Source of the DNA: Candidatus Hodarchaeota archaeon | Lineage (GTDB): Archaea; Asgardarchaeota; Wukongarchaeia; Wukongarchaeales; Wukongarchaeaceae | Assembly (NCBI GenBank): GCA_048886645.1 | Contig: JBHLKN010000001.1 | Span: forward strand, 30,732 to 60,213 | Direction: 5' to 3' | Length of the DNA stretch: 29,482 bases | Part shown: piece by piece, positions 3,353 to 21,473 of the stretch | How the letters are laid out: every line of letters starts with the position of its first letter | Numbering within the stretch: position 1 is the first letter of the stretch | The notes under the pieces: model-generated | Database searches by the model: none | What the model was told of the DNA's origin: nothing | Seen by the model: the letters and a program-made list of their open reading frames with translations, nothing else | Translations under genes and position numbers: made by a program

Positions 3353-4159
3353 TTATGCACTCATTGTTCCTATCTGTTCTTCAAGCTCTTGAGATTTTTT
3401 AATAAATATTTGAGCTGCTTGTCTTACAATACTTTCTGGAGGTATATTGCCTAACCCTTCTACTGTAAAAATAAACTTCGTATCATCTTCCTTAATCTTT
3501 ATAGCATCAAAATCACAAGCTTCGACACACGCATCGCATAGCGTGCATTCCAGAGGATCAAAACAAACTATTTCATCCCCTTCACGCTTAAGAATCTGTT
3601 TCGGACAAGCTTCAATGCATTCTTCACAAAGTGTGCATTTTTCAGAATCAAAATCAAACTCCATACAATATTTATAAGCGGAAACGGTTACAGATTGCCA
3701 TTTTGCGTGTTGTTTTCCAGTGCCCATCTTCGCAAAGGCTTCAAGCTCAATTTTCTGTCTAGGGACAAGCTTTACTATGACTATATCAGGAGAAACAGGC
3801 ACTACTTCAGGATCAGAACTCTCAAGATCCCCAGAATAAACTACTGTAATACCTTCTCCTGCCTCCTTTTTCAAAGTAAAAGTCACGTTACATTTTGGAC
3901 ATCCTACCCCCTGGCACTCACACTCCTCACTAAATCCGTACTTTCCTTCAGGCGTAGTTAACGGTATCAAACCCAGCCTATGGGCGAGTACCTCGTCAAA
4001 AAGAGACGAATTATTCTCCACAATAACAACTTCATCTATCGCCATCACAGGTACTTCTGCTATAATAGTCCTACGCAAACTGTTAATAAAAGCAGGAGAA
4101 ACACCTTCTATAATAAACCTTATAAAATTGCCATCCCGCTCAATAATCTCTACATCCAT
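3353..4159 (-). CDS. rpoD: DNA-directed RNA polymerase subunit D (Rpo3) with a ferredoxin-like 4Fe-4S insertion
   Basis: 268 aa. Contains FIIEGVSPAFINSLRRTIIAEVPVMAIDEV and two Cys clusters, CTLCEECIEACP and CTLCDACVEAC. Lies upstream of L18e as in other archaea. Confidence 0.9.
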   Translation of the reverse strand: MDVEIIERDGNFIRFIIEGVSPAFINSLRRTIIAEVPVMAIDEVVIVENNSSLFDEVLAHRLGLIPLTTPEGKYGFSEECECQGVGCPKCNVTFTLKKEAGEGITVVYSGDLESSDPEVVPVSPDIVIVKLVPRQKIELEAFAKMGTGKQHAKWQSVTVSAYKYCMEFDFDSEKCTLCEECIEACPKQILKREGDEIVCFDPLECTLCDACVEACDFDAIKIKEDDTKFIFTVEGLGNIPPESIVRQAAQIFIKKSQELEEQIGTMSA

Positions 4160-4321: not shown

Positions 4322-6535
4322 TTGTCTAATCACTTTTTCAAAGAATCTGATAAAAACTTCACCCTAGATAAACTACCAGGCGTCGGCTCCAAGCTTGCTA
4401 AAAAAATTGTATCTTTCTACGGGTCTTTAGAAACAACAATGGAAGCAATCCTTAATGGAGATGTAGCAGGTCTATCCTCCATAGAAGGCATCAGTCAAAA
4501 AACAGCCATAAACATCGTAAAAACAGCCTTTGCTTCAATAGAAAACATCAGTGTAGAAGGAATATTGAAAACAGAAAATGCGATAAAAATTCATAATCGT
4601 ATACTAAAAATAATCTTTCCCTTCTGCAGTACTGATTACGCTAAAAACAAACTATTTCTCTACTATCCCCTCCCCCCAAACTTCCTTGAAAAAATACAAC
4701 AAAGATTTGAAAAGCTAAAGATAGCGAAAAAATTAGTAGAAGATCTTAAAGAAGAAGATTTAGAAAAAATTAAAAAAATACTGTCAAAAATTTCCCCCCT
4801 ATACATAACTCGCAAGAAAAAAAGAGTAGAAGACCGAGTAGTTATAACAGAAAAAGAAGAAATCTATAAAAAATTCATAAATAAGAACTGTTCAGATTTT
4901 TGCCCAATCTACCTAATCGAAAACATGGATGAAGCAATAGATTATGCAAAATCTTTTAGCCTAGCCTTATTGGTAAGCGGCTCCCTTTATATGGACCATT
5001 CCCTCGAAAATATTCCAAACCTCGAAATACTATCTCCCTCGACAGATATAATCGACATTTTTCCCGAACTTGTCCTAAGTTTTTACACTCAAAAATATGA
5101 AACCATTAACGCTGTTTGTAACCTAAACGCTCTTTTAAAAGAGTTAAACATAATACCCATAGTCGAAAACCTTGTGGGCTCCATTAATTCAGAAGCATTG
5201 GAAATTGTTGCAGAAGGAATATCCCAACTTACACCGGAAGGAGATATAGTCGAAAAAATAGACCCTGAAATAGACAGATATCGAACAGCTTTAGAAAACC
5301 TCGACGGAATCATTTCAGATGTAGAAGTTTGGGCAAACGAAGAAATTTCAAGAAAAATCGGTGAAAGCTCTATAACCCTAAAAGGGGAGCAAATACTTAC
5401 ACTCTTAAAAGAAGCCGACGAAATGGGTAGTCTACGAGGAATCGTAGAAGAAGATATCGTTGAAATCATTGAAGAAGCCGTTACAAAAGCAGAAGACAAA
5501 ATAGCAGAACAACTAGACCTAACCCCTTCAGAACTAGAAATTATTGAAGGAATCTTTTCCCGTGAAACAGTCTACCCCCTACAAGTAAACAACATACGCT
5601 TAAGAGAACTAGAAGACACCCTCAGAAGAAACTACACAACCAAAAAATACTGGTTACTCAAAAAAATAGCAAACCAACTAAAAGAATTAGAAGAAAAGAC
5701 AAGAGAAGCTGTAAAAGCCTTACTCGAATTCGACGTACACCTCGCAATATCCCTCTTTGCAAAAGAATACAATCTAAGCCCCCCCGAAAACCTCTACACG
5801 GACACTTATGGAATATCCTTCAAAAACGGATACAACCTCTTCTTAAAAGAAGCAGAACTAGAAAACGGAAACCCCGTAATCCCCATAAGATATACGGTGG
5901 GAAACATACCAAAAGACCAAGAAGCAGAAGTAGGGGACGAACGCGTTATCATCCTAAGCGGAGCTAATTCGGGGGGGAAAACCACATGCATAACCCTTCT
6001 AGCCCAATTAATAATAATGGCGCAATCAGGACTACCAATACCCGCTGAAAACGCTAAAATAGGGCTTTTCGACGAACTATACTACTTCGCAAAAACTACA
6101 GGATCAATGGACGCAGGGGCCCTTGAATCAACACTAAAAACCTTCGCCAAAGTCATCGTAGAAGGAGAAGGATCAAAACTAATCCTTGTAGACGAACTAG
6201 AAGCAATAAGCGAACCTGGAGCCTCAGCCAAAGTAATAGCAGCAATACTCGATTTACTTCACGAGAAAGAAAACTCCTGTGGCGTTTTCGTAAGCCACCT
6301 AGCAGAGGATATCCTAAAATTTACTCAAAGCAAAATACGCGTTGACGGTATTGAAGCAACAGGACTCGACGGAAACCTAAACCTCATAGTAGACAGAACA
6401 CCAAAATTCAACTATCTCGCCAAATCCACGCCAGAACTCATTGTAGAACGCTTAGCCCGCCTCTACAAAGAGGTCCAAGACCATGAAGTATACAATAAAA
6501 TCCTTGAACGCTTCAAAGAAAAAGAAACCCCCTAA
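4322..6535 (+). CDS. Archaeal MutS-like ATPase (MutS domain V) with an N-terminal tandem helix-hairpin-helix domain
   Basis: 737 aa. HhH motifs are LPGVGSKLAKKIV and IEGISQKTAINIV. Walker A is GANSGGKTTCITLLAQ and Walker B is LILVDELEAISEPG. TTG start at 4322 with GAGGG about 10 nt upstream. Confidence 0.8.
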   Translation: MSNHFFKESDKNFTLDKLPGVGSKLAKKIVSFYGSLETTMEAILNGDVAGLSSIEGISQKTAINIVKTAFASIENISVEGILKTENAIKIHNRILKIIFPFCSTDYAKNKLFLYYPLPPNFLEKIQQRFEKLKIAKKLVEDLKEEDLEKIKKILSKISPLYITRKKKRVEDRVVITEKEEIYKKFINKNCSDFCPIYLIENMDEAIDYAKSFSLALLVSGSLYMDHSLENIPNLEILSPSTDIIDIFPELVLSFYTQKYETINAVCNLNALLKELNIIPIVENLVGSINSEALEIVAEGISQLTPEGDIVEKIDPEIDRYRTALENLDGIISDVEVWANEEISRKIGESSITLKGEQILTLLKEADEMGSLRGIVEEDIVEIIEEAVTKAEDKIAEQLDLTPSELEIIEGIFSRETVYPLQVNNIRLRELEDTLRRNYTTKKYWLLKKIANQLKELEEKTREAVKALLEFDVHLAISLFAKEYNLSPPENLYTDTYGISFKNGYNLFLKEAELENGNPVIPIRYTVGNIPKDQEAEVGDERVIILSGANSGGKTTCITLLAQLIIMAQSGLPIPAENAKIGLFDELYYFAKTTGSMDAGALESTLKTFAKVIVEGEGSKLILVDELEAISEPGASAKVIAAILDLLHEKENSCGVFVSHLAEDILKFTQSKIRVDGIEATGLDGNLNLIVDRTPKFNYLAKSTPELIVERLARLYKEVQDHEVYNKILERFKEKETP

Positions 6536-7752: not shown

Positions 7753-9405
7753 TTACAACATCGTGTTTTTTAAAAGCTTATCTACCGATTCTAAAAATTT
7801 TCTATTCTCTTCCAATGTTTTAGGATCCATACTTTTTCCTAATTTCTCTAAAACAATTTCTAATGCAGAACAACTTCTTACAAGATATGTAAAAGCTTCA
7901 TTAGAACTAGGATCTTTTTTAAAACCTTCCACAGCTGTTTCTACAAGTTTCCTTACCTCAGGTAAAACGATTTCCCCTATCTCTAAATTATACTCTAAAG
8001 CTTTTTCCAACGCAAAAACCACATGTTTTTGAACTTCCGGATCATCCTCTCCCAAAAAATTAATCATCAAAGGTAACGCTTTTTCACTCACCTGCGGGTT
8101 ATTATATATCAAAGTTTTAAGGATAAACGCCAACTTTTCTTTTATTTCCCAATGTTCCCATTTCCGGAAAGAAAAAAGAACATCTTCCACGATCAATTCT
8201 TCAAGCATCAACACTATCTGTATCGCTATATCCTGACTATGCCGTGCCCCCTGCTCAACAACCTTATATAACGTTTCAAAAGCACTTTTTCTAACCTCAA
8301 AATCCATATCTCTCAACAAACATTTCAAAATCTCTACCGCTTCCTTTAAAGCCATAAAATCTACGCTTACCATATCCACCAAAGAATCCGCTATTGCAAC
8401 ACGTATCTCCCTATCTCCACTTTTCAAAAAATCCTTCAGAAGTCTTAAAACCCCCCCTACAAACTCCGGAAAATTTTTAACCAAAATAGAAAGAGCAACC
8501 ACCGTTTCTTTACAAAACCTTTCTTTATCCCTCGCTAACTCCTGCATCCACAAAAAAACATCCTTCAAAACATCTTCTGAAACATTGGATATAATCTCAA
8601 TCAAACAAGAATAAGCCTTCAATCTAACATGCGCTTTTTCACTCTCAATCATCCTCCTAATAATCGGAAACAAAACAGCAATCCGATTAGGCAAACTATT
8701 TACCAATTCATTCATTATATAACAAGCATAATCTACTACAACTTCATTATCGTCAAAAACAATCTCCTTCAAAATTGAGATGGTTTCTTCTTCAAAAAAT
8801 TCCGCATTAGTCTCAACAAAAACATCTAAAGCATCCATAGCCCTCATACGCATCTCCCTATCCCCCAAAGAAAGATACCTTAACTCAGGCAATAACTTAC
8901 AAGGCAACTCCAAGTTAATCCTCGCTACTTTACGAAGAGTATTTACCGCAGCCTCCCCAACCTTAGGATCCTTATCCAAAAAAAGCCGCCTCAAAACCCC
9001 CATAACCTCCCCACCTATACCCGGATATTTCTTCAAAGCCACACACAAAGATTCAGAAGCAGTATCATACACCATAAATTCCCTACTTCTCAACAAATTC
9101 TCAAGCGTCTTAAGACTCAAAAAAGCAGTTTCTTCACTTATCGTCACTATTTCCTCCAAAAGCCCCCTAGCACACAAAAGCTGATTCCAAACCTGCTTCT
9201 CAGCCTTATCTTTAAAAACTCCCCTGTTTGCAAAATTTCTCAATTTTTTACCATAACTTAAAATCAATTCCTCAAATACACTAAGCAGATTTAAAAGAAA
9301 AGTCGCTGACCCGCTTTCTTTTAATATTTTCACAGCGTCTTTCAAATCATCTAATTTTACCTCTTGCCTAACCTTCATATAAATACGCCTTTCCCTAACC
9401 CACAT
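7753..9405 (-). CDS. Large all-alpha HEAT/armadillo-like repeat protein, function unknown
   Basis: 550-aa uninterrupted ORF with repeated helical ~35-40 aa units carrying ...VR..A...L... patterns (DREMRMRAMDAL, DREIRVAIADSL, DFEVRKSAFETL, DPEVQKHVVFAL). An alternative start is the ATG at 9378. Confidence 0.6.
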   Translation of the reverse strand: MWVRERRIYMKVRQEVKLDDLKDAVKILKESGSATFLLNLLSVFEELILSYGKKLRNFANRGVFKDKAEKQVWNQLLCARGLLEEIVTISEETAFLSLKTLENLLRSREFMVYDTASESLCVALKKYPGIGGEVMGVLRRLFLDKDPKVGEAAVNTLRKVARINLELPCKLLPELRYLSLGDREMRMRAMDALDVFVETNAEFFEEETISILKEIVFDDNEVVVDYACYIMNELVNSLPNRIAVLFPIIRRMIESEKAHVRLKAYSCLIEIISNVSEDVLKDVFLWMQELARDKERFCKETVVALSILVKNFPEFVGGVLRLLKDFLKSGDREIRVAIADSLVDMVSVDFMALKEAVEILKCLLRDMDFEVRKSAFETLYKVVEQGARHSQDIAIQIVLMLEELIVEDVLFSFRKWEHWEIKEKLAFILKTLIYNNPQVSEKALPLMINFLGEDDPEVQKHVVFALEKALEYNLEIGEIVLPEVRKLVETAVEGFKKDPSSNEAFTYLVRSCSALEIVLEKLGKSMDPKTLEENRKFLESVDKLLKNTML

Positions 9406-10689: not shown

Positions 10690-12552
10690 ATGCGAAGAAC
10701 AGTAACAGAAGGGGGACTTTTGACCTTTCAAGGCAAACTTTTAGAGGTAAAAGAAGAAGACAGTGTTAAGATTGATGATCTTATGAGGCGGTTTCAATCT
10801 GCAAAAAGAACTGCTTTCAAAAGGCTTGTAGAAGGTGGAAATAAGAATAAAGGTTTAGAAAAAGAGCTTGTTGAGAACTTTATTCTAAATTCGGAATATG
10901 CAAGATCTGCTATCTCTGATGCGAAAGCGATAATGGATAGTCAAAGGGAACTATTACCTTACTATATTGCGAATTATGAGGGGAAGATAAGAAAGAGTAA
11001 GAAAAAGTTGGAAAAATGTCGTTCTGAGCTGAAGCAAAAAGGTCTATTCTCAAGAATAAAGAAGTATGAGGAGAAAAGAGATCTTCTAAAACTGTATTTA
11101 GAGAATGAAACCATACCTAGGGTGATATTTGGAGGGAGAAGGAACTTTGAGCTTTTCATAAAGGGAGAGATAACGAGGGAAGAATGGAGAGCGTTAAGAA
11201 CAAACCAAGTTTACAGTAAAGGCAGAGCCGTTGGAAAGGGTAATAATAACTTAAGGGTAACTTACGAAGGAGATGGTGAAAGAAATCAGTTCTACTTATG
11301 GATAAACTATCCTTCTAAAAAAGTGGGAAAGTGGGGGAGTAAACAGAAGTATAAACTTTTTGTTCCAGAACCTTTCAAGCCATACATTATAAAAAGCTTG
11401 GAGACTGAGGAAAAAGAGTTTGGAAAAAAGAAAAAGTCTAAGACTTGTACTAAAAAAGCGCACACAGTAAGGGTAATTCGCAGGAAAGGAGGGGAATATT
11501 ATGTTTTCATAACTGTGGAGGTTTTTTGTCCAGAAGAAGCTTTATCGAACGCCAAAGAAAAAGGTTTGTTGGGTTTAGATGTTAACACTAAGGGTATAGG
11601 GGCAGCAATAGTTCTCCCCAACGGTAACCTAAGAGCGCACAGATGGTTTCCATGCCACGAACTTCTATATGTAAGAAACGAAAAACGCTCGCACTTGATA
11701 GGAAATCTTTTGGTTAAGGTTTTCAGGTGGGCTAAAGGTTTCGGTGTAAACACTGTTGTTTCTGAGAGTTTTAACAGGTTTAAACGAGATCATGATACCT
11801 ATGGGAAGTTTAACCGTGCAACGCATAACTTCTGTAAGGAGAAGATGGTTAGAACCATTAAAAGTAGAGCAGTAAAAGAGAACTTTGTTCACATAGAAGT
11901 TTTCCCAGCTTACAGCTCCATAATAGGAGCAATAAAATATCAAAAAATATATGGCTTGAGTACTCATGAGGCAGCCGCTTTTATAATAGGCAGAAGGGGT
12001 TTAGGATACAACAAGGAAAGGATTCCGAAAGAATTTTCCGAGAGCTTAAAGCCAGAGGGGCGTCGCCGATGGAAGGATGACGTTGATCCTTTGGCAAGCA
12101 TCTGCCGCCAGTGGGGCGGTCTATGGAAACAAGTTTCGAAGATAAAAAACAGTTTCTTCGAAACAACAAGGGAGATACCTTTAAATCATCGCAAATTCAT
12201 AAGGCATCTCCTTATTAAAGCAAGTGGCGCTGACAGCGCGCTTCAGCTCGCGCTCTCCTACCTAAAGAAAAAGGGAGAGACGGAAGTAGAGGCAACCAAA
12301 CCGTTGTCGAGGTTCAGATCCTACCTCGACAATCTAATAAGTTTGGTCCTCGAAAACGCTGAAGAACTACGTGAGAATCGTAGCACTAGACGCAAACAGT
12401 CGCTATGCATCGTCGTAGACTTTATAAACAATAAAGGATTTTCTACCTTCACAAATCTACGATCTGAAGAAAACACCCCCAAAGGATCAAAGTCTCTAAA
12501 ACGGCATATAAGGGCTTTCAAGGGCGGTTTTCGAGCGGCCGAGGTAGCTTAG
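10690..12552 (+). CDS. TnpB/Cas12-superfamily-like RuvC-fold protein; atypical (no Zn-ribbon, degenerate RuvC-III, long C-terminal extension)
   Basis: 620 aa. RuvC-I-like GLLGLDVNTKGIGAAIV (D297, nt 11578-80). RuvC-II-like NTVVSESFNRF (E359, nt 11764-66). VFPAYSSIIG corresponds to the PAYTSQ box of TnpB. STHEAAAFIIGRRGLG corresponds to the D.NAA.NI..RG box, with T/H-E in place of the catalytic D. There is no CxxC pair between these boxes. TTATATAT at 10638-45 and GGGGT precede the ATG. Confidence 0.6.
   Translation: MRRTVTEGGLLTFQGKLLEVKEEDSVKIDDLMRRFQSAKRTAFKRLVEGGNKNKGLEKELVENFILNSEYARSAISDAKAIMDSQRELLPYYIANYEGKIRKSKKKLEKCRSELKQKGLFSRIKKYEEKRDLLKLYLENETIPRVIFGGRRNFELFIKGEITREEWRALRTNQVYSKGRAVGKGNNNLRVTYEGDGERNQFYLWINYPSKKVGKWGSKQKYKLFVPEPFKPYIIKSLETEEKEFGKKKKSKTCTKKAHTVRVIRRKGGEYYVFITVEVFCPEEALSNAKEKGLLGLDVNTKGIGAAIVLPNGNLRAHRWFPCHELLYVRNEKRSHLIGNLLVKVFRWAKGFGVNTVVSESFNRFKRDHDTYGKFNRATHNFCKEKMVRTIKSRAVKENFVHIEVFPAYSSIIGAIKYQKIYGLSTHEAAAFIIGRRGLGYNKERIPKEFSESLKPEGRRRWKDDVDPLASICRQWGGLWKQVSKIKNSFFETTREIPLNHRKFIRHLLIKASGADSALQLALSYLKKKGETEVEATKPLSRFRSYLDNLISLVLENAEELRENRSTRRKQSLCIVVDFINNKGFSTFTNLRSEENTPKGSKSLKRHIRAFKGGFRAAEVA
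12538..12550 (+). repeat. Right copy of the 13-bp direct repeat (functional tRNA nt 1-13)
   Basis: Identical to 10384-10396. Also forms the last four sense codons and part of the TAG stop of the 620-aa ORF (GCC GAG GTA GCT TAG). Confidence 0.6.
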
Positions 12553-12651
12553 CCCGGGAGCAGTATAGGTGGCATAATACGACACTTTCTCTCCGATAGC
12601 GCTGGACTGAAGATCCAGTTGTCGCTGGTTCAAATCCGGCCCTCGGCGCCA
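12538..12651 (+). tRNA. tRNA-Phe (anticodon GAA), CCA-encoded, with a non-canonical ~37-39 nt intron in the D-arm
   Basis: Acceptor stem GCCGAGG (12538-44) / CCTCGGC (12641-47). T-arm GCTGG-TTCAAAT-CCGGC (12624-40). Anticodon arm CTGGA-CTGAAGA-TCCAG (12602-18) with GAA at 12609-11 and G37. Variable loop TTGTC. D-arm 5' part GCTT-AGCCCGGGA-G, then an insert at about 12561-12597, then AGC-G26. G73 followed by CCA. Confidence 0.85.
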
Positions 12652-12729
12652 CTCCCACTTAAACTCTAAATTCTGTCTATTTATCATTAAAGAAGAAAAT
12701 TTTTAAACCAAGAAAACTGTTATGTTATC

Positions 12730-12880
12730 TGCAACGCCTGCTGGAAGTTAAGCCCAGTCACGTTTTGCCGAGTACTTCTGTGCGCGAGTCAGCGGGAAAG
12801 GTAGAAAGTTGTAGTTTCGGCCACGGCCAAAGCGCTGGGGAAACACCCGATCCCAGCCGAACTCGGAAACAGGCGTTGTA
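12730..12880 (+). other. Processing stem with a bulge-helix-bulge-like motif enclosing the 5S rRNA
   Basis: 11-bp stem TGCAACGCCTG (12730-40) / CAGGCGTTGTA (12870-80, one G-U). Then a 4-bp helix CTGG (12741-44) / TCGG (12863-66, two G-U). 3-nt bulges AAG (12745-47) and AAA (12867-69) lie on opposite strands. Confidence 0.7.
12747..12868 (+). rRNA. rrf: 5S rRNA, circularly permuted gene (3' part encoded first, 5' part second; 122 nt between the predicted BHB cuts)
   Basis: 12820-12868 is GCCACGGCCAAAGCGCTGGGGAAACACCCGATCCCAGCCGAACTCGGAA, which matches the archaeal 5S 5' third. 12747-12815 is GTTAAGCCCAGTCACGTTTTGCCGAGTACTTCTGTGCGCGAGTCAGCGGGAAAGGTAGAAAGTTGTAGT, which matches the 3' two-thirds. 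A UUCG loop at 12816-19 joins the natural ends. Confidence 0.85.
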
Positions 12881-12885
12881 TATGT

Positions 12886-12893
12886 CTTTTTTT
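12886..12893 (+). terminator. Oligo-T tract downstream of the 5S processing stem (archaeal-type terminator candidate)
   Basis: CTTTTTTT lies a few nt after the 3' arm of the stem, and further T-runs follow. Confidence 0.4.
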
Positions 12894-13091: not shown

Positions 13092-14312
13092 ATGGCAAAT
13101 GTGATAGATAATCTAGATGAGATGTTCGAAAATTATTTGTCAGGGTCGAAAATTTTTAAAAATCGTGATACGATGCGTCCTTCTTATGTGCCAAGGAAGC
13201 TTCCTCATAGAACGGAGAAGGCTTTGGATTTGGGGAGAATTTTAGCACCGGCTTTAAGGGGTGAAATTCCTTCTAATGCTTTATTATATGGGAAGCCTGG
13301 TACTGGTAAGACCGCGGTAACTCAGTATGTTCTTCAAAAAATGAATGCTAAATGTGTCGAGGCAGGGATACCTCTCACCTCTACTTATTTTAATTGTCAA
13401 CTTGTTGATACAAATTATCGTGTTTTAACTTCTCTTTGTCAGGAAATTGAAGTAGAAGTGCCTATAACTGGGCTTCCAACTGTCGAAGTGTATTCACGGT
13501 TTACCAGAGCTTTGGATGCTAAGGATTTGCAGATGATAATAATACTTGATGAGATTGATGCTCTTGTAAAGAAGAGTGGTAGTGAGGTTCTTTATAGTTT
13601 GACGAGGATTAATACGGATCTTAAAAGAGGGAAGGTGAGTCTTGTTGGTATCTCGAATGATACGCGTTTCAAGGAGCTTTTGGATCCTCGTGTTTTGAGT
13701 AGTTTAAGTGAGGAGGAGATTGTTTTTCCGCCTTATAACGCCACAGAACTTAAAGATATTCTGCGGGAACGTGCTTTAATAAGTTTTAATGAGGGAGTAA
13801 TTGATGATGGCGTGATCGGTCTATGTGCGGCTTTAGCTGCAAAAGAGCATGGTGATGCAAGGAGGGCTCTTGACTTATTAAGGGTTGCAGGGGAGCTTGC
13901 GGAGAGATCAGGCTCGCAAAAAGTAATAGGAGATCATGTAAAAGAGGCTCAACGGGTTATAGAGCGAAACATGGTTGAAGAGGTCATAAAAACTCTTCCT
14001 CTCCAATCAAAGCTCGTGCTTTTCAGCATATACTTACTTGAAAAAGAAAACCTTCATGATATTTACACGGGCCAACTTTACAACACGTATCATGAAGTTG
14101 CCCGTGAAATGCGGGTGGAGTCTTTGACTCAAAGAAGAATTAGTGATCTCATAAATGAGCTGGACATGATGGGTATTATCAATGCATTAGTGATCTCTCG
14201 TGGGAGGGGTGGTCGTACACGGAAAATAAATCTGAGCATTCCTATACGCCAGTTAAAATCGTTCATTGAACATGATATCAGGTTTTCCGCTTATCTAGAT
14301 CTCATACCTTGA
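13092..14312 (+). CDS. cdc6: Orc1/Cdc6 replication initiator (AAA+ plus C-terminal winged helix)
   Basis: Contains LPHRTEKALDLGRIL, Walker A LLYGKPGTGKTA, Walker B MIIILDEIDAL, sensor GISND and GDARRALDLLRVAGE, plus a wH tail. ATG at 13092 preceded by GGTG. The track's TTG start at 13074 is less likely. Confidence 0.93.
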   Translation: MANVIDNLDEMFENYLSGSKIFKNRDTMRPSYVPRKLPHRTEKALDLGRILAPALRGEIPSNALLYGKPGTGKTAVTQYVLQKMNAKCVEAGIPLTSTYFNCQLVDTNYRVLTSLCQEIEVEVPITGLPTVEVYSRFTRALDAKDLQMIIILDEIDALVKKSGSEVLYSLTRINTDLKRGKVSLVGISNDTRFKELLDPRVLSSLSEEEIVFPPYNATELKDILRERALISFNEGVIDDGVIGLCAALAAKEHGDARRALDLLRVAGELAERSGSQKVIGDHVKEAQRVIERNMVEEVIKTLPLQSKLVLFSIYLLEKENLHDIYTGQLYNTYHEVAREMRVESLTQRRISDLINELDMMGIINALVISRGRGGRTRKINLSIPIRQLKSFIEHDIRFSAYLDLIP

Positions 14313-16093: not shown

Positions 16094-17017
16094 TTATCTT
16101 CTTTCTCTCACAAGAAGATATATTGCAACTAACAAAATTACTGCAGTACCTAAAATGAGTAAATCTATATATTCTGGTATTGAATTAAATTCAAACATAA
16201 ATATTATTGTTATTAAAAACATTAATCCTAGAACTAATAAAGAGGAACCAAAGCAATAATCCCACCATATTTTAACTCTCATAGGTGCTCGTGCATCAAA
16301 AGTTCGCGGAGCTCTACGTGTAGCAATATGAACATCTAATTCCCCAAGAGCCCATATTACGCTTTCTCGAACATTAACATTATCATCATTCAAAGCTTTT
16401 TTTAGAGGTTCAACAGCCCTCTTATCCCAGATTCTGCCAAGAGCCGCCGCAGCATACCTCCGAACACCTCCATCACTATCCCCCAAAACCTCAACAAGAG
16501 ACTCAACAGCCCTAGAATCGCCTATTTTCCCCAAAGCCCACGCCGCATACCTTCTAATATCAGTATCTTCATCCTTCAAAGCTTGAATAAGGTGTTCAAT
16601 AACAACGGTATCCTTCATGTTTCCAAGGGCTTCTATGGCATATCTTCGAACTTCGATATCTTCATCTAATAACGCTTTAATTAAAGGATTTACGCTTCTT
16701 GAATTACCTATTTGGCCGAGAATCCATGCTACCCTCCTACGAACATCAGCATCTTCATGATTCAGAACTTTTAAGAGGTGTTCAACAGCTGGCTGGCCCA
16801 TCTCAGCAAGTGTTTTCGCTGCTTCCTCTCGAATAATCCAATCTTCACCAGTTAAAGCTTCTATAAGAGCTTTTCTAGCTTGTTCCCCCTTTTTTACAAG
16901 AATCCAAGTCGCCCTCCACCGAACACTGTTATCTTCATCTTTTAAATCTAAAATTAGACGTTCTATTTCCTCAATTACCCCTTTTTTCCTTTCTGAAGGT
17001 TTTTCGGGTGTCTCCAT
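16094..17017 (-). CDS. PBS-lyase-type HEAT-repeat protein with a C-terminal double-TM anchor
   Basis: 307 aa. About 31-aa units of the form D..VR..A..ALG.IGD.RAVEPLI.AL.D. C-terminus is FGSSLLVLGLMFLITIIFMF ... LILGTAVILLVAIYLLV. Confidence 0.88.
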   Translation of the reverse strand: METPEKPSERKKGVIEEIERLILDLKDEDNSVRWRATWILVKKGEQARKALIEALTGEDWIIREEAAKTLAEMGQPAVEHLLKVLNHEDADVRRRVAWILGQIGNSRSVNPLIKALLDEDIEVRRYAIEALGNMKDTVVIEHLIQALKDEDTDIRRYAAWALGKIGDSRAVESLVEVLGDSDGGVRRYAAAALGRIWDKRAVEPLKKALNDDNVNVRESVIWALGELDVHIATRRAPRTFDARAPMRVKIWWDYCFGSSLLVLGLMFLITIIFMFEFNSIPEYIDLLILGTAVILLVAIYLLVRERR

Positions 17018-17582: not shown

Positions 17583-19670
17583 TCAGCTTTTCTTGGCTTT
17601 GATCTTCTCTAAAGCTTGTTTCACTGTTAGCCTAAAATAGTTATCTTCATCCTTCAAAGCTATTATGAGAGGTCTTATTGCAGGTTCTCCAAGCTTAACA
17701 AGAGCTTCTATAGCTTCCGCTCTAACAGAGGGATGTTTATCTTTTAGTGCTTGAATTAGGGGATCTATAGCTCTTACATCTCCGATCTTGCTAAGGGCCC
17801 ATGCTGCATTTATTCTAACTTCTTTATCGTCGTCTTTCAGGGCTTTTATGAGGGGTTCAACAGTCCTCATATCCCCTATCTTACCAAGGGCTAATGTTGC
17901 TGTCCATCTGACATCACTGTATTTATCTTTTAAAGCATTGATGAGTGGTTTTAAAGCCCTTAAATCGCCTATTTCACCAAGAACTGATGCAGCAGTCCAT
18001 CTAACATGCATATCTTTATCATTTAATGCTTTTATGAGGGGGTCAATAGCCCTTTTATCACCTATCTCACCAAGGGCTCCTGCTGCATTTCTTCGAACTG
18101 CATCATATTCATCTTTTAGAGCTTGAATAAGAGGTTCAACAGCTCTCACATCCCCTATCTCACCGAGGGCCCATGCTGCTCGCCGTCTAACAGCTCTATG
18201 TTCATCATTTAGGGCTTTTATGAGAGGATCTACCGCTGATTCTCCTATATTTACAAGAGCTTTTGATGCTCCTCTCTTAACATCTTTATCCTCATCTTTA
18301 ATAGCCTCCAATAGGTGTTCAAGCAACGCTGTTCCTGTCTTTCCAAGAGCTTCTATTGCTTTTCTTCGAACAGCGTCATCTTTTTTCTTTAAAGCTTGAA
18401 TAACAGGATTTACAGCCTTTACACCCTCTACATTTTCAGGGGCATTTACTGCTCTTGTTTCAACACGTTGATCTTTTTCTTTCAGAGTTTGTGTATGAGG
18501 TTTTACAACTCCTAGATACCCTAAACTGCCAAGAGCAGATTCAACCACCACTCTAACAGTAGGCTCTTCATCATTTAAAGCTTCCATGAGGGGGCCAATA
18601 GCCCTTTCATCCCCTATCTTACCAAGAGCTATTGCTACAATTTCTCGAACACCGCTATCTTCATCATTTAAAGCTTCCATGAGGGATTCAACAGCCCGCG
18701 AACCCCCTATTCTTCCAAGAGCTCCTGCTGCTTGTTTTCGACTATCACTATCATAATCGTGCAAAATTTGAATAAGGGGATCAACAGCCCTCATATCACC
18801 TATTCTACCAAGATTCCATATTGCTGTCAAACGAACAATCCTATTTTCATCTTTCAGAGCTTGGATGAGAGATTCAAGTTCGCGTTCTGGTATCTTTTCA
18901 GGGGCTTTTACTTCTCTTGTTTCAACACTTTTATCTTGATCTTCTAGAGTTTGTACGACGGATTTTATGACCTTTTTATCTCCTATTTTATCGAGAACTG
19001 ATTCTGCTGCCAGTTGAACATCTTGGTTTACGTCTTCTAAGCAGCGAGTAATAGGTTCAACTGCTCGTGTATCACCTATTTTTCCAAGAGCTTCTACAGC
19101 ATATTTTCGCACAACAGGAGTTTCATCCTTTAGGATCTCGATGAGGGGTTCAACAGCTTGCTTATCACCTATTTTTCCGAGTGCCCATGCTGCATATCGT
19201 TTCATATTCGTATCCGGATCTTTCAAAGCTTGGGAGAGTGATTTTAAAATTTTAGGATCTTTTAAATTGCCAAGGGCTGCTACGGCATGTCTTCGAACAC
19301 GGCTATCCTCATCCTTTAAAGCCTTGATAAATGGATCTACTGCCCTCATGTCCCCTATTTCTCCAAGAATACATATTGCCCTCCATCTAACGTCCGCATC
19401 TTTATGGTTCAGAAGCTGTAGTAAGGGTTTAACTGCTGGGTTTCTTATCCTTACAAGGGCTTTTGCTGCTCCCTCTCGAATACTTAAATCTTTACCCTTC
19501 AAGGCTTTTATAAGGGCTTTAACAGTATTTATATTCCTTAACTTTCCGAGGGTCCATATTGCCCTCCATCTGACATCAATATCTTCATCTCTTAAATCTT
19601 GGATCAGTTGTTCTATTTCCTCCTCAGAGACATCGTTTTTCGTTTTAATCGTTTTATCGGTTATTACCAT
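17583..19670 (-). CDS. PBS-lyase-type HEAT-repeat protein (about 22 units in three blocks)
   Basis: 695 aa. The blocks are separated by a repeated linker: [19 protein letters not shown] and [19 protein letters not shown]. Confidence 0.9.
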
Positions 19671-19748: not shown

Positions 19749-21473
19749 TCAGCTTTCCTTTTGAGCTTTAATTTTCTCTATAGCCTTTTTGGCAGCTTCA
19801 TGGACAGTTTCATTTTTATCATTAAGAAGTTGAAGGAGGGGGTTTATTGCCTTTGAATCGCCTATCCTACCAAGAATTGTAGCTGCATATATTCGAACAT
19901 AATCATCTTCATTTTTCAAAGCCTCTATTAGGGGATCAATAGCTTTCATAGGCTCTATTTTAGCAAGGGCTTCTGCTGCATATTTACTTACAAGATTTTC
20001 TTCCTTCAAAGTATAAATTAGGGGAATAACAGCCCTCGAATCACCAATCTCACCAAGAGCTCTTGCCACCATCCATCGAACATCGATGTTAATGTCATTC
20101 AAAGCATAAATGAGGGGAATAACAGCCCTCGAATCACCAATCTCACCAAGAGCTCTTGCCGCTCTCCATCGAACATCCCAATTTTTGTATAGTAAAAATT
20201 TAATAAGTTTTTCTAACGCTTCTGAATAACCCATTTTACCAAGGGCACATAATATTTCAATTCGAACATGGATATCTTTACGTTCAATTTCAAAAGCGTT
20301 TAATAGAGGCTCGAAAGCCCTCTTATCTCCTATCTCACCAAGAGCCCACGCTACATACTCCCGAACACGCTTACTTCCATCCATCAAAGCCTCAATTAGG
20401 AGCTCAACAGCCCTTGGATCACCTATCTCACCAAGAGATCTTGCGGCATAAGCTCGAACGTTCAAATCTCTATCTTTTAAGGCTTTTATGAGGGGATTTA
20501 TTGCTGGTTCTCCAATCTTACCAAGGGCTTTTACCGCACTCCATTGAACAGACCAATTTTTATCCTTAAAAACCTGAATGAGGGGCTCAACAGCCCTAAA
20601 ATCCCCTATCCTACCAAGCTCCAACGCTGCTCTCCGTCGAACATGCCAATCATCATCCTTCAAAGCCTTAATGAGAGGATCGACTGATGGTTCTCCTATT
20701 CTGCCAAGAGCCTGTGTTGCCCTCATTCTAACCCGCTTATCTTTATCCTTAAGAGTTTTAATGAGGGGGCCTATAGCCCTTGCATCACCTATTCTGCCAA
20801 GGGCTGATTCTACCACTAACCGAACAGCTTGGTCTTCATCTTCTAAAAGCTGGATAAGTGGATCTATAGCTCTTGTATCTTCTATCCTGCCAAGGGCTCC
20901 TGCCGCATACCTTCTAACGCCGGTATCTTCATCTTTAAGTGCCAGAATTAGATGATCTATTGCTCCAATATCGCCTATTTTTCCAAGTGCCCACGCAGCA
21001 TATCTTCTAGTATCAATATCTTCATCCTTCAAAGCTTGGACAAGGGATTCTACGACCCTAGAAACCCCCATATTACCAAGGGCTACAATGGCATATCTTC
21101 GAACTTCGATATCTTCGTCCGTCAAAGCTTTGATCAGAGGTTCTACAGCCTTCGAATCGCCTATTCCACCTAGAATCCACGCTGCTCTTCTTCGAACATC
21201 CGCATCTTCATGTTTAAGAATTATTAGGAGGGTGTCAACAGCTAGTTCCCCCATTTTAACAAGAGTTTTTGCAGCACCCTCCCGAACAACCCAATCATCC
21301 CCCACCAAAGCCTCTATAAGAGCTTCAACAACCGTTACATCCTTCATATTACCAAGTATCCATGCAGCCCTCCATCGAACATCAATATCTTCATCTTTTA
21401 AATCTTGAATTAGACGTTCTATTTCCTCAGAGACTTCTTTTTCTTTTTTAATTGGTTTATCGGTTATTTCCAT
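19749..21473 (-). CDS. PBS-lyase-type HEAT-repeat protein (about 18 units)
   Basis: 574 aa. The N-terminal ~130 aa are closely similar to the 307-aa and 695-aa paralogs ([26 protein letters not shown]...). Confidence 0.9.
   Translation of the reverse strand: MEITDKPIKKEKEVSEEIERLIQDLKDEDIDVRWRAAWILGNMKDVTVVEALIEALVGDDWVVREGAAKTLVKMGELAVDTLLIILKHEDADVRRRAAWILGGIGDSKAVEPLIKALTDEDIEVRRYAIVALGNMGVSRVVESLVQALKDEDIDTRRYAAWALGKIGDIGAIDHLILALKDEDTGVRRYAAGALGRIEDTRAIDPLIQLLEDEDQAVRLVVESALGRIGDARAIGPLIKTLKDKDKRVRMRATQALGRIGEPSVDPLIKALKDDDWHVRRRAALELGRIGDFRAVEPLIQVFKDKNWSVQWSAVKALGKIGEPAINPLIKALKDRDLNVRAYAARSLGEIGDPRAVELLIEALMDGSKRVREYVAWALGEIGDKRAFEPLLNAFEIERKDIHVRIEILCALGKMGYSEALEKLIKFLLYKNWDVRWRAARALGEIGDSRAVIPLIYALNDINIDVRWMVARALGEIGDSRAVIPLIYTLKEENLVSKYAAEALAKIEPMKAIDPLIEALKNEDDYVRIYAATILGRIGDSKAINPLLQLLNDKNETVHEAAKKAIEKIKAQKES
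20020..20160 (-). repeat. Intragenic tandem repeat: 48-bp exact copies spaced 93 bp (one HEAT unit) apart
   Basis: AGGGGAATAACAGCCCTCGAATCACCAATCTCACCAAGAGCTCTTGCC occurs at 20020-20067 and again at 20113-20160. Both copies encode ARALGEIGDSRAVIPLIY. Confidence 0.9.

Follow-up and report, generated by a model that had tools for sequence, protein, structure and literature searches.

The 5S ribosomal RNA (rRNA) gene is among the most conserved and most easily recognised of all genes. A 29,482-nucleotide (nt) stretch of an Asgard archaeal contig (Candidatus Hodarchaeota archaeon, JBHLKN010000001.1; the whole stretch is referred to here as the window) raises the question of whether such a gene can be encoded with its two parts in swapped order, and how its product would then be made whole. 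An original prediction, made from the letters of the window, had placed a circularly permuted 5S rRNA gene inside a bulge-helix-bulge (BHB) stem of the kind recognised by the archaeal splicing endonuclease. The permutation and an intact 5S fold are present at 12747-12868. On the genomic evidence, we put somewhat better than even chances on a wider proposal: that in at least two deeply diverged Asgard lineages the sole 5S gene is permuted, and that their ribosomal 5S is made circular by the tRNA-splicing endonuclease together with RtcB. One of these lineages is a marine-sediment clade, with the Njordarchaeales as its nearest named relatives; the other is a hydrothermal clade of the Heimdallarchaeia.

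A complete 5S rRNA in rotated order

Direct reading of the sequence between 12600 and 13000 gave a complete 5S rRNA of 122 nt in rotated order, with 5S positions ~52-120 first, then a UUCG cap, and then positions 1-51 (Table 1). The upstream part contains the elements GUUAAGCCCAG, UUUUGCC/GGUAGAA, GAGUAC and UGCGCGAG, and extends over helix IV with its GNRA loop and the 3' strand of helix I. The downstream part reads GCCACGGC-CAAA-GCGCUGGGG-AAACACCCGAUCCCAGCCGAACUCGGAA, has the conserved AA bulge at its end, and is unchanged throughout the clade to which the window belongs. The tetranucleotide GGAA is present twice (12743-12746 and 12865-12868). When 12868 is joined to 12747 the sequence CCGAACUCGGAAGUUAAGCCC is obtained, the predicted junction running from CCGAACUCGGAA directly into GUUAAGCCCAG. 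The unit is bracketed by a single promoter-like box and a single T-run, and its 3' portion is encoded upstream of its 5' portion. The coordinates originally given for the stem, the bulges, the 5S segments, the tetraloop and the GGAA repeats all match this reading, and the gene-level claim, that of an intact circularly permuted 5S with a tetraloop-capped helix I, holds.

A search of the 29-kb window with the Rfam 5S model (RF00001) returned no 5S at the gathering score of 38 bits, and a single tRNA was all that Rfam reported. When the native locus was searched permissively, two sub-threshold half-matches of 17.9 and 16.1 bits were found in swapped order: 12819 to ~12868 aligned to model positions 1-51 with high posterior probability, and 12747-12817 aligned to positions ~58-120. 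A score below the gathering threshold at the native locus is what would be expected of a permuted gene.

The reciprocal test was made with a covariance model, R1, that was built solely from seven in silico rotated sequences (those of the window and of the relatives described below) and the standard five-helix structure. R1 matched two haloarchaeal 5S genes over model positions 1-118 of 118, with 97.5 bits (E = 1.7e-20) and 85.2 bits (E = 1.3e-17); these two genes score 99.8 and 90.5 bits in Rfam. A bacterial 5S (Paracoccus) scored 46.3 bits with R1, and the native permuted loci gave split matches only, of at most 54 bits. The rotated window sequence (12820-12868 joined to 12747-12815) was also used as a BLAST query, and positions 5-102 of it aligned colinearly over the junction to haloarchaeal megaplasmid sequences. 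The targets are full-length colinear 5S genes situated directly 3' of 23S genes, with Rfam scores of 99.8, 90.5 and 92.8 bits. The R1 and BLAST results imply that the locus carries the information of an entire 5S, in rotated order. The Rfam model thus sees the native locus as swapped half-matches, and the full-length 5S identity that had been foreseen for the rotated form is borne out by the reciprocal model.

The same permutation in two Asgard clades

Related genomes had been named beforehand as the place to look for the same permutation, and it was found there, with the identical break GGAA↓GUUAAG, in seven distinct sequences on twelve contigs from eleven assemblies. The sequences fall into two Asgard clades: a sediment clade (the window, L002, L003 and L004) and a hydrothermal Heimdallarchaeia clade (L007, L021 and L024). 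In the window, an Orc1/Cdc6 gene (13092-14312) adjoins the 5S unit. Cdc6 homologues of 89-93% identity led to L002, L003 and L004, in each of which the permuted unit is located ~220 nt upstream of cdc6. L001 is the identical contig from an independent Logan assembly, and the JGI metagenome contigs L015 and L016 repeat the L002 and L003 types.

The hydrothermal clade was encountered by scanning 185,579 GTDB species genomes with a degenerate pattern for the permuted order (GTTAAGC..AGTAC..CGAACYCGGAA), an exact-match approach that would overlook diverged or differently broken permutations. A single archaeal match, L007, was obtained. Five bacterial matches from the same scan and seven metagenome matches were rejected as chance occurrences: none had 5S features, and a covariance model of the whole precursor (R2, see below) was null in the eleven that were searched. 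Among the rejected matches, L013 and L018 are duplicates of L010 and L017. L007 is the metagenome-assembled genome (MAG) Dive96_bin3.136 from a Southwest Indian Ridge vent, and is classed as Asgardarchaeota, Heimdallarchaeia, order unassigned (PMC9769843 supplement). Homologues of its DHH-phosphoesterase neighbour, 64% and 59% identical, led to two further species in which the unit has the same syntenic position, L021/L023 (GCA_027018025.1) and L024/L025 (GCA_054014235.1). Synteny walks from more distant DHH (36-37%) and Cdc6 (59%) homologues (L029-L032 and L034) met neither a permuted nor a colinear 5S. The genomes named as carrying the permuted 5S are GCA_976558965.1, GCA_027018025.1, GCA_054014235.1 and JAJRXH01; the source samples are marine sediments (SRR30758827, ERZ27275859/60 and ERZ23499107) and vents (JAJRXH01, GCA_027018025.1 and GCA_054014235.1).

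The flanks of the unit differ by clade, with tRNA-Phe and cdc6 in one and L15e and the DHH gene in the other. The closest named sequences to the GatE protein of the window are from Njordarchaeales (54%), followed by Heimdallarchaeota. A MutS-like protein (730 aa) of the window is 37% identical to that of L021, and the two clades are therefore deeply separated. Genome G+C is ~39% in both, and the G+C of the 5S itself is 57% in the sediment clade vs 69% in the vent clade. That the 5S should follow habitat in this way is as expected for a working, temperature-adapted structural RNA.

Compensatory change in all five helices

The seven distinct sequences from the two clades served as the comparative structure set, in which most of the covariation reflects one deep split and a few within-clade events. 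The mature 5S pairing was satisfied in 93.7% of cells in the native-order alignment and in 94.9% in the rotated alignment, and slid controls gave 32-46%. Changes on both sides were seen at 11 to 12 pairs, and the value of 12 was reached by 2 of 500 shuffles; the observed percentage of paired cells and the covariation score were reached by none of the 500. For four of five measures, therefore, at most 2/500 shuffles reached the observed values. The fifth measure, the number of further pair types, was indistinguishable from the shuffles (94/500).

In helix I, 94% of cells pair, and the one compensatory pair is a double change from C-G to G-C. The double changes in helix II are C-G to G-C and U-A to C-G, and that in helix III is A-U to G-C. 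Helix IV has changed from U-A to G-C, from G-C to C-G, and from G-U to A-U or G-C, and helix V from U-A to C-G twice, from U-A to G-C and from C-G to U-A. Within the window clade, compensatory changes occur in L003, and an A-C mismatch of helix I is repaired in L002. The second clade has a CUCG cap instead of UUCG and a helix I of 7 base pairs (bp) instead of 8. The motifs CCGAAC(U/C)CGGAAGUUAAGCC, GAGUAC and GGGAAA are invariant. Selection maintains the 5S fold, with compensatory changes in all five helices.

A relaxed bulge-helix-bulge at the new ends

The new ends of the permuted gene are embedded in a stem that was also compared across the seven sequences. In the window, the outer stem UGCAACGCCUG/CAGGCGUUGUA comprises 10 Watson-Crick pairs and 1 G-U pair. 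This outer helix (h), which closes the 3' bulge, is 11 bp long throughout the window clade; in the thermophile (vent) clade it is 4-5 bp long and is accompanied by a second helix. The segment next to the bulge, UGCAACGCCUG/CAGGCGUUGUA in the window clade, is GGGUG/CACCC in L007 and GGCG/CGCC in L021 and L024. The four stem pairs nearest the central helix are formed in 7/7 sequences, and three of the four have changed on both sides (12/149 and 13/148 from C-G to G-C, and 14/147 from U-A to C-G). The fifth pair from the central helix fails in two of the three thermophile-clade sequences. The central helix, CUGG/UCGG or, in the second clade, CCGG/CCGG, is paired in 28/28 cells over the seven sequences. 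Both bulges (AAG or AGG on the 5' side, AAA or AAU on the 3' side) are found in 7/7 sequences, and their place with respect to the 5S sequence does not vary.

The 3' strand of the central helix (12863-12866) has two alternative partners, the leader CUGG and the CCGA of helix III (12847-12850), and both pairings are 100% kept. The change of column 139 from U to C is matched in helix III by A to G at column 125, and column 139 still fits leader G19. The whole-precursor model R2 scored 153-175 bits at the seven loci and had no other match in the 183 kb searched. An alternative in which the leader (12741-12744) pairs with the 5' strand of helix III was rejected: it leaves a C-A mismatch in the window clade, vs BHB pairing in 7/7.

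Under the canonical BHB rule, each strand is cut after the second nucleotide of its 3-nt bulge. When applied to the locus, this rule gives a seamless canonical 5S junction in both clades and an excised piece of 122 nt (121 nt in the vent clade). The universal CGGAAGUUAAGC is restored exactly, and the joined ends read CCGAAC(U/C)CGGAA followed by GUUAAGCC, the same as in the haloarchaeal 5S genes matched by R1. The claim that cutting and joining exactly restores the conserved 5S sequence in a 122-nt molecule is thereby confirmed in silico. Because an independent rule yields a seamless junction in both clades, the stem is taken to be a processing signal and not a retained arm, and this is the strongest argument for that reading.

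Five points weigh against the reading of the locus as a whole. First, no inner helix h' closes the 5' bulge: U12748 faces C12862 in 7/7 sequences, and the proximal pairs of helix III (G52-C26 and U53-A25) come after the 5' bulge in its place. The motif is a relaxed BHB, of the helix-bulge-helix (hBH) or bulge-helix-loop (BHL)-like type, and not a strict hBHBh', and a broad-specificity endonuclease would therefore be needed. Cleavage of relaxed motifs is confined to (alpha-beta)2 or epsilon2 EndA with a specific loop, and (alpha-beta)2 EndA with an L1 loop is reported from Asgard archaea (PMC5829648). Second, the fetched DNA showed no EndA or RtcB gene of these organisms. Third, the changes in the central helix are one-sided only (U-G to C-G and G-U to G-C), with no double changes. 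Fourth, the BHB conformer is not selected by minimum-free-energy (MFE) folds. In the window clade, the leader CUGG pairs locally with CCAG in these folds. In the vent clade (4618-4626 and 4727-4730 of L007, and likewise in L021 and L024), the palindromic leader CCGG pairs with the 5' strand of helix III, and because of this pairing the choice of the BHB conformer may require the endonuclease or a chaperone. When the precursor and the rotated or circular RNA were folded by MFE, the z-score was only -1.36 and helix I and loop E were not recovered; thermodynamic folding was of little use here, and was excluded as evidence in either direction. Fifth, a divergent colinear 5S is possible elsewhere, the lineage DNA scanned amounting to ~115 kb and the MAGs being fragmentary. 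Of the BHB processing stem as first proposed, then, the outer stem with its compensatory pairs, the 4-bp helix and both bulges stand in 7/7 sequences, and the inner helix is absent.

Proposed processing and its end product

The putative promoter lies immediately upstream of the stem, with the centre of its TTTTTAAA box ~26 nt upstream of the first stem nucleotide, U12730. The window, L002, L003 and L004 share the block AAAGAAGAAAATTTTTAAACCAAGAAA with 100% conservation, whereas rearrangement or deletion affects what lies further upstream. A conserved box of its own, CGCAAGGCTTTTATAAA, precedes the unit in the thermophile clade, which also has a CTCTTTTCT run. Promoter and terminator roles are assigned to these elements from position and conservation. 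The block is kept in the window even with the loss, just upstream, of ~190 nt that L003 and L004 have between tRNA-Phe and the promoter block (12652-12690; alignment columns ~147-340); the conserved AAAGAAGAAAATTTTTAAACC box marks the exact end of this deletion. The AT-rich spacer that separates the 5S from cdc6 showed neither repeats nor origin-like elements.

From its own promoter and T-run terminator, the unit would give a primary transcript of ~12730-12890. Its leader and trailer would form the 11-bp stem, and the leader CUGG would replace the 5' strand of helix III on UCGG, which would place two 3-nt bulges on opposite strands, 4 bp apart, in the manner of a relaxed (hBH-type) BHB. A broad-specificity (alpha-beta)2 splicing endonuclease would cut at 12746/12747 and 12868/12869, and RtcB would join A12868 to G12747 to give a covalently closed 122-nt 5S rRNA. 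The junction would recreate CGGAAGUUAAGC, the freed UCGG would re-pair with CCGA (12847-12850), and helix III would refold. The new ends of the permuted gene fall within helix III, where the conserved AA bulge (positions 50-51) meets G52. The form that is built into the ribosome would most likely be the circle, its helix I capped. The limits of transcription, the cleavage, the ligation, the circularity and the use in ribosomes are all deduced from the genes; on this footing, we regard cut-and-ligate processing of the permuted transcript as likely.

The circle might be made as proposed and then be re-opened in or near the UUCG cap, which would yield an ordinary linear 5S. The 23S circle of P. 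furiosus is opened elsewhere (PMC7758197), and re-opening would parallel the permuted tRNAs of Cyanidioschyzon and the re-linearised circular pre-rRNAs (16S and 23S). However, the natural ends of the permuted 5S are separated by no spacer, only by a 4-nt UUCG or CUCG loop on a conserved helix, and there is neither a second BHB nor a known processing signal. Stable tetraloops resemble permanent caps, and the permuted signal recognition particle (SRP) RNA of Thermoproteus remains circular (PMC4731332). On these grounds the mature form is most likely the circle itself, and re-opening is considered unlikely.

A product that stays both permuted and linear would result if the transcript were trimmed, or cut at the bulges without ligation, or if the stem were kept, leaving helix III nicked or with an extra arm. 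There are organellar 5S rRNAs that stay permuted, for example in brown-algal mitochondria (PMC4267664). An exactly seamless helix III in both clades, however, is needed neither by a retained stem nor by unligated ends. After cutting, the new 5' end would be held by two pairs only (G52-C26 and U53-A25), and a retained leader would compete for UCGG and so disrupt loop C and helix III. Archaeal RNAs excised at BHB motifs are, moreover, generally circularised by RtcB. We therefore consider a linear permuted 5S improbable, and the closed circle is retained as the preferred product.

The locus could also be a relic or a paralogue, decaying or serving some other role, with a colinear 5S elsewhere supplying the ribosome; the partial genome scans (~115 kb) and the fragmentary MAGs leave room for such a gene. 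The ~115 kb of DNA fetched from these lineages contained no colinear 5S. A lineage-specific 26-mer spanning the colinear junction, CCCAGCCGAACTCGGAAGTTAAGCCC, had 0 matches in the 185,579 GTDB species genomes and 0 in JGI metagenomes, and was also absent from JGI metatranscriptome contigs, a result that is uninformative as to RNA. A relic would further have to be reconciled with the compensatory substitutions in all helices, with universal 5S motifs that are kept across clades at 37% protein identity, with the conservation of the promoter-like and terminator elements, and with a 5S G+C that tracks habitat (57% vs 69%, in 39% genomes). It is very unlikely, and the 5S of the window is probably functional and the organism's sole 5S gene. 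Lastly, an assembly artefact such as a collapsed tandem 5S repeat, a general risk in metagenome assembly, is excluded for all practical purposes because the same arrangement recurs in seven distinct sequences, within unique flanks, in eleven assemblies by different groups and assemblers (MEGAHIT, Logan, JGI and NCBI contigs) from different samples.

Table 1. Elements of the permuted 5S rRNA unit, in window coordinates
Feature	Position	Strand	Remarks
Putative promoter: purine-rich stretch resembling a B recognition element (BRE) and TATA-like box TTTTTAAA (12700-12707)	12690-12709	+	Assigned from position and conservation
Outer processing stem (helix h), 5' strand UGCAACGCCUG	12730-12740	+	Pairs with 12870-12880
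Central 4-bp BHB helix (H), 5' strand CUGG	12741-12744	+	Pairs with UCGG, 12863-12866
5' 3-nt bulge AA↓G	12745-12747	+	Predicted cut 12746/12747; G12747 is 5S position 52
5S positions ~52-120: helix III proximal strand, helix II 3' strand, helix V, loop E	12747-12815	+	
UUCG tetraloop capping helix I	12816-12819	+	Fuses the natural 3' and 5' ends
5S positions 1-51: helix I 5' strand, loop A, helix II 5' strand, helix III, loop C	12820-12868	+	
Central BHB helix, 3' strand UCGG	12863-12866	+	In the mature fold, helix III 3' strand with partner CCGA, 12847-12850
3' 3-nt bulge AA↓A	12867-12869	+	Predicted cut 12868/12869
Outer processing stem, 3' strand CAGGCGUUGUA	12870-12880	+	Pairs with 12730-12740
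T7 run, likely archaeal terminator (from position and conservation)	12887-12893	+	Just 3' of the stem; T-runs follow the unit in all relatives

Neighbouring genes

A tRNA-Phe(GAA) gene (12538-12651) is situated 100 nt upstream of the 5S unit and contains a 37-nt intron (12561-12597) at the non-canonical position 22/23 in the D-arm. The orthologous tRNA-Phe genes are intron-less in L004 (3732-3808) and L002 (1901-1977), and that of L003 (~151-250) has a 26-nt intron at the same site. ARAGORN overlooks the tRNA-Phe of the window, and Rfam aligns the wrong 5' end, at 34 bits. When the intron flanks were drawn by hand, a 4-bp helix CGGG/UCCG (CGGG/CCUG in L003) was obtained, with 3-nt bulges and cuts at AG↓C and AU↓A. 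The geometry proposed for the 5S likewise comprises a 4-bp helix, 3-nt bulges and a cut after the second bulge nucleotide. The intron is polymorphic for presence and absence, and non-canonical splicing is therefore taken to be active in this lineage.

Upstream of the tRNA is an open reading frame (ORF) of 620 aa (10690-12552, + strand), the last 15 nt of which overlap the tRNA-Phe 5' end. It has no Pfam match, and its NCBIfam matches, to TnpB-related IS200/IS605 domains, are all sub-threshold. It was not seen upstream of the tRNA in L004, where masking limits the comparison. The ORF may be a mobile element inserted beside the tRNA, possibly with a guide RNA region that overlaps the tRNA.

A cluster of large HEAT/PBS-lyase repeat proteins is encoded on the - strand (7753-9405, 16094-17017, 17583-19670 and 19749-21473), with up to 11 HEAT_2 repeats each, and a HEAT protein also flanks the locus in L004. 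The segment 9851-10375 is strongly C-over-G skewed and of low complexity; its ORFs give nonsense rich in H, N, K, T, P and R, and the segment probably either represents a degraded element or does not code for protein. RNA polymerase subunit D (Rpb3-like; 3353-4159, - strand) has an inserted 4Fe-4S dicluster domain. The MutS-like protein, of ~735 aa, has an HhH domain at its N terminus and a MutS domain V ATPase at its C terminus, and is encoded at 4322-6535 (+) in the window, at 10004-12205 in L021 and at 3480-5681 in L025. This protein, 37% identical between the clades, lies four genes from the permuted 5S in the vent clade.

Discussion

No precedent for a genomically permuted archaeal 5S gene was found in a full-text literature search, in agreement with the novelty statement of the original prediction. 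Archaeal 5S, unlike 16S and 23S, has been described as not being processed via excision and circularisation (PMC12918454, 2026).

A close parallel is found in Thermoproteus, in its permuted SRP RNA (Plagens et al. 2015, PMC4731332). That, too, is an essential, universally conserved structural RNA with its 3' part encoded upstream of its 5' part and with BHB-type flanks, for which the tRNA-splicing endonuclease and a ligase restore the functional topology as a circle, and standard covariance models overlook its gene as well. It differs in being an SRP RNA and not an rRNA, in belonging to Thermoproteota and not to Asgard archaea, and in that the circle was demonstrated experimentally, whereas the 5S circle is proposed from the genes. 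In the 5S, furthermore, a bare tetraloop fuses the natural ends, and the central helix of the BHB mimics the RNA's own helix III.

In permuted tRNA genes (Cyanidioschyzon merolae and Thermofilum pendens; cited in PMC4267664 and PMC5829648), a permutation of the gene itself is likewise combined with BHB-like termini and a circular RNA produced by splicing enzymes. In the tRNAs, however, the circle is an intermediate that is re-opened at a spacer by RNase P and tRNase Z. The 5S is without a spacer, and the circle is therefore probably its final form, unlike that of the permuted tRNAs. Archaeal pre-16S and pre-23S rRNAs are cut out of their processing stems at a BHB, RtcB closes them into circles, and circular or permuted rRNA can reside in ribosomes. 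Their genes are colinear and any permutation comes about in the RNA, whereas here the gene is permuted and circularisation would restore colinearity.

Two further systems involve 5S itself. In the mitochondrial 5S of brown algae and other stramenopiles (Valach et al. 2014, PMC4267664), helix I is also closed by a hairpin, the termini lie elsewhere and the standard model overlooks the gene. These are organellar RNAs in which only the alpha domain is concerned, the ends lie at the three-way junction, and the product is permuted and linear, with no BHB or ligation. Circular 5S-derived RNAs of Sulfolobus and Halobacterium (PMC12558985, citing Danan et al. 2012) are likewise closed archaeal RNAs with 5S sequence; as presented in PMC12558985, they come from colinear genes, have heterogeneous junctions and are read as degradation-related. 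The proposed mechanism thus has precedents in permuted tRNA genes and in the Thermoproteus SRP RNA, and a case in an rRNA and in Asgard archaea would be the first. The design is distinctive in combining a tetraloop cap with a BHB made by mimicry of the RNA's own helix III.

The same mimicry suggests a simple route to the permutation. The two BHB half-sites look like antiparallel copies of the near-palindromic CCGG-AA, that is, of the helix III strand and the AA bulge. A tandem duplication with its junction at CCGG-AA would create an endonuclease substrate at once. An origin by tandem duplication had been put forward at the outset on account of the repeated GGAA, and the duplication of GGAA, or CCGGA(A/G), is its sole basis. 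Further likeness of the leader and trailer to 5S, as judged by eye, is not significant, and the idea of a duplication origin therefore stays weak.

The practical consequence concerns annotation. Annotation by Rfam and Infernal, and with it the "5S present" criterion of the minimum information about a metagenome-assembled genome (MIMAG) standard, would score such genomes as 5S-less, and the permutation explains why. The R2 model or a simple pattern now detects the permuted 5S. If the proposed processing is correct, gene permutation rescued by splicing would extend from tRNA and SRP RNA to rRNA. Together with the polymorphic D-arm tRNA intron nearby, this would make these lineages hotspots of splicing-dependent rearrangement of RNA genes. 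The proposal predicts a naturally circular rRNA in mature Asgard ribosomes, which would be the first rRNA to need splicing enzymes for the repair of its gene order, and would be found in the archaeal group closest to eukaryotes.

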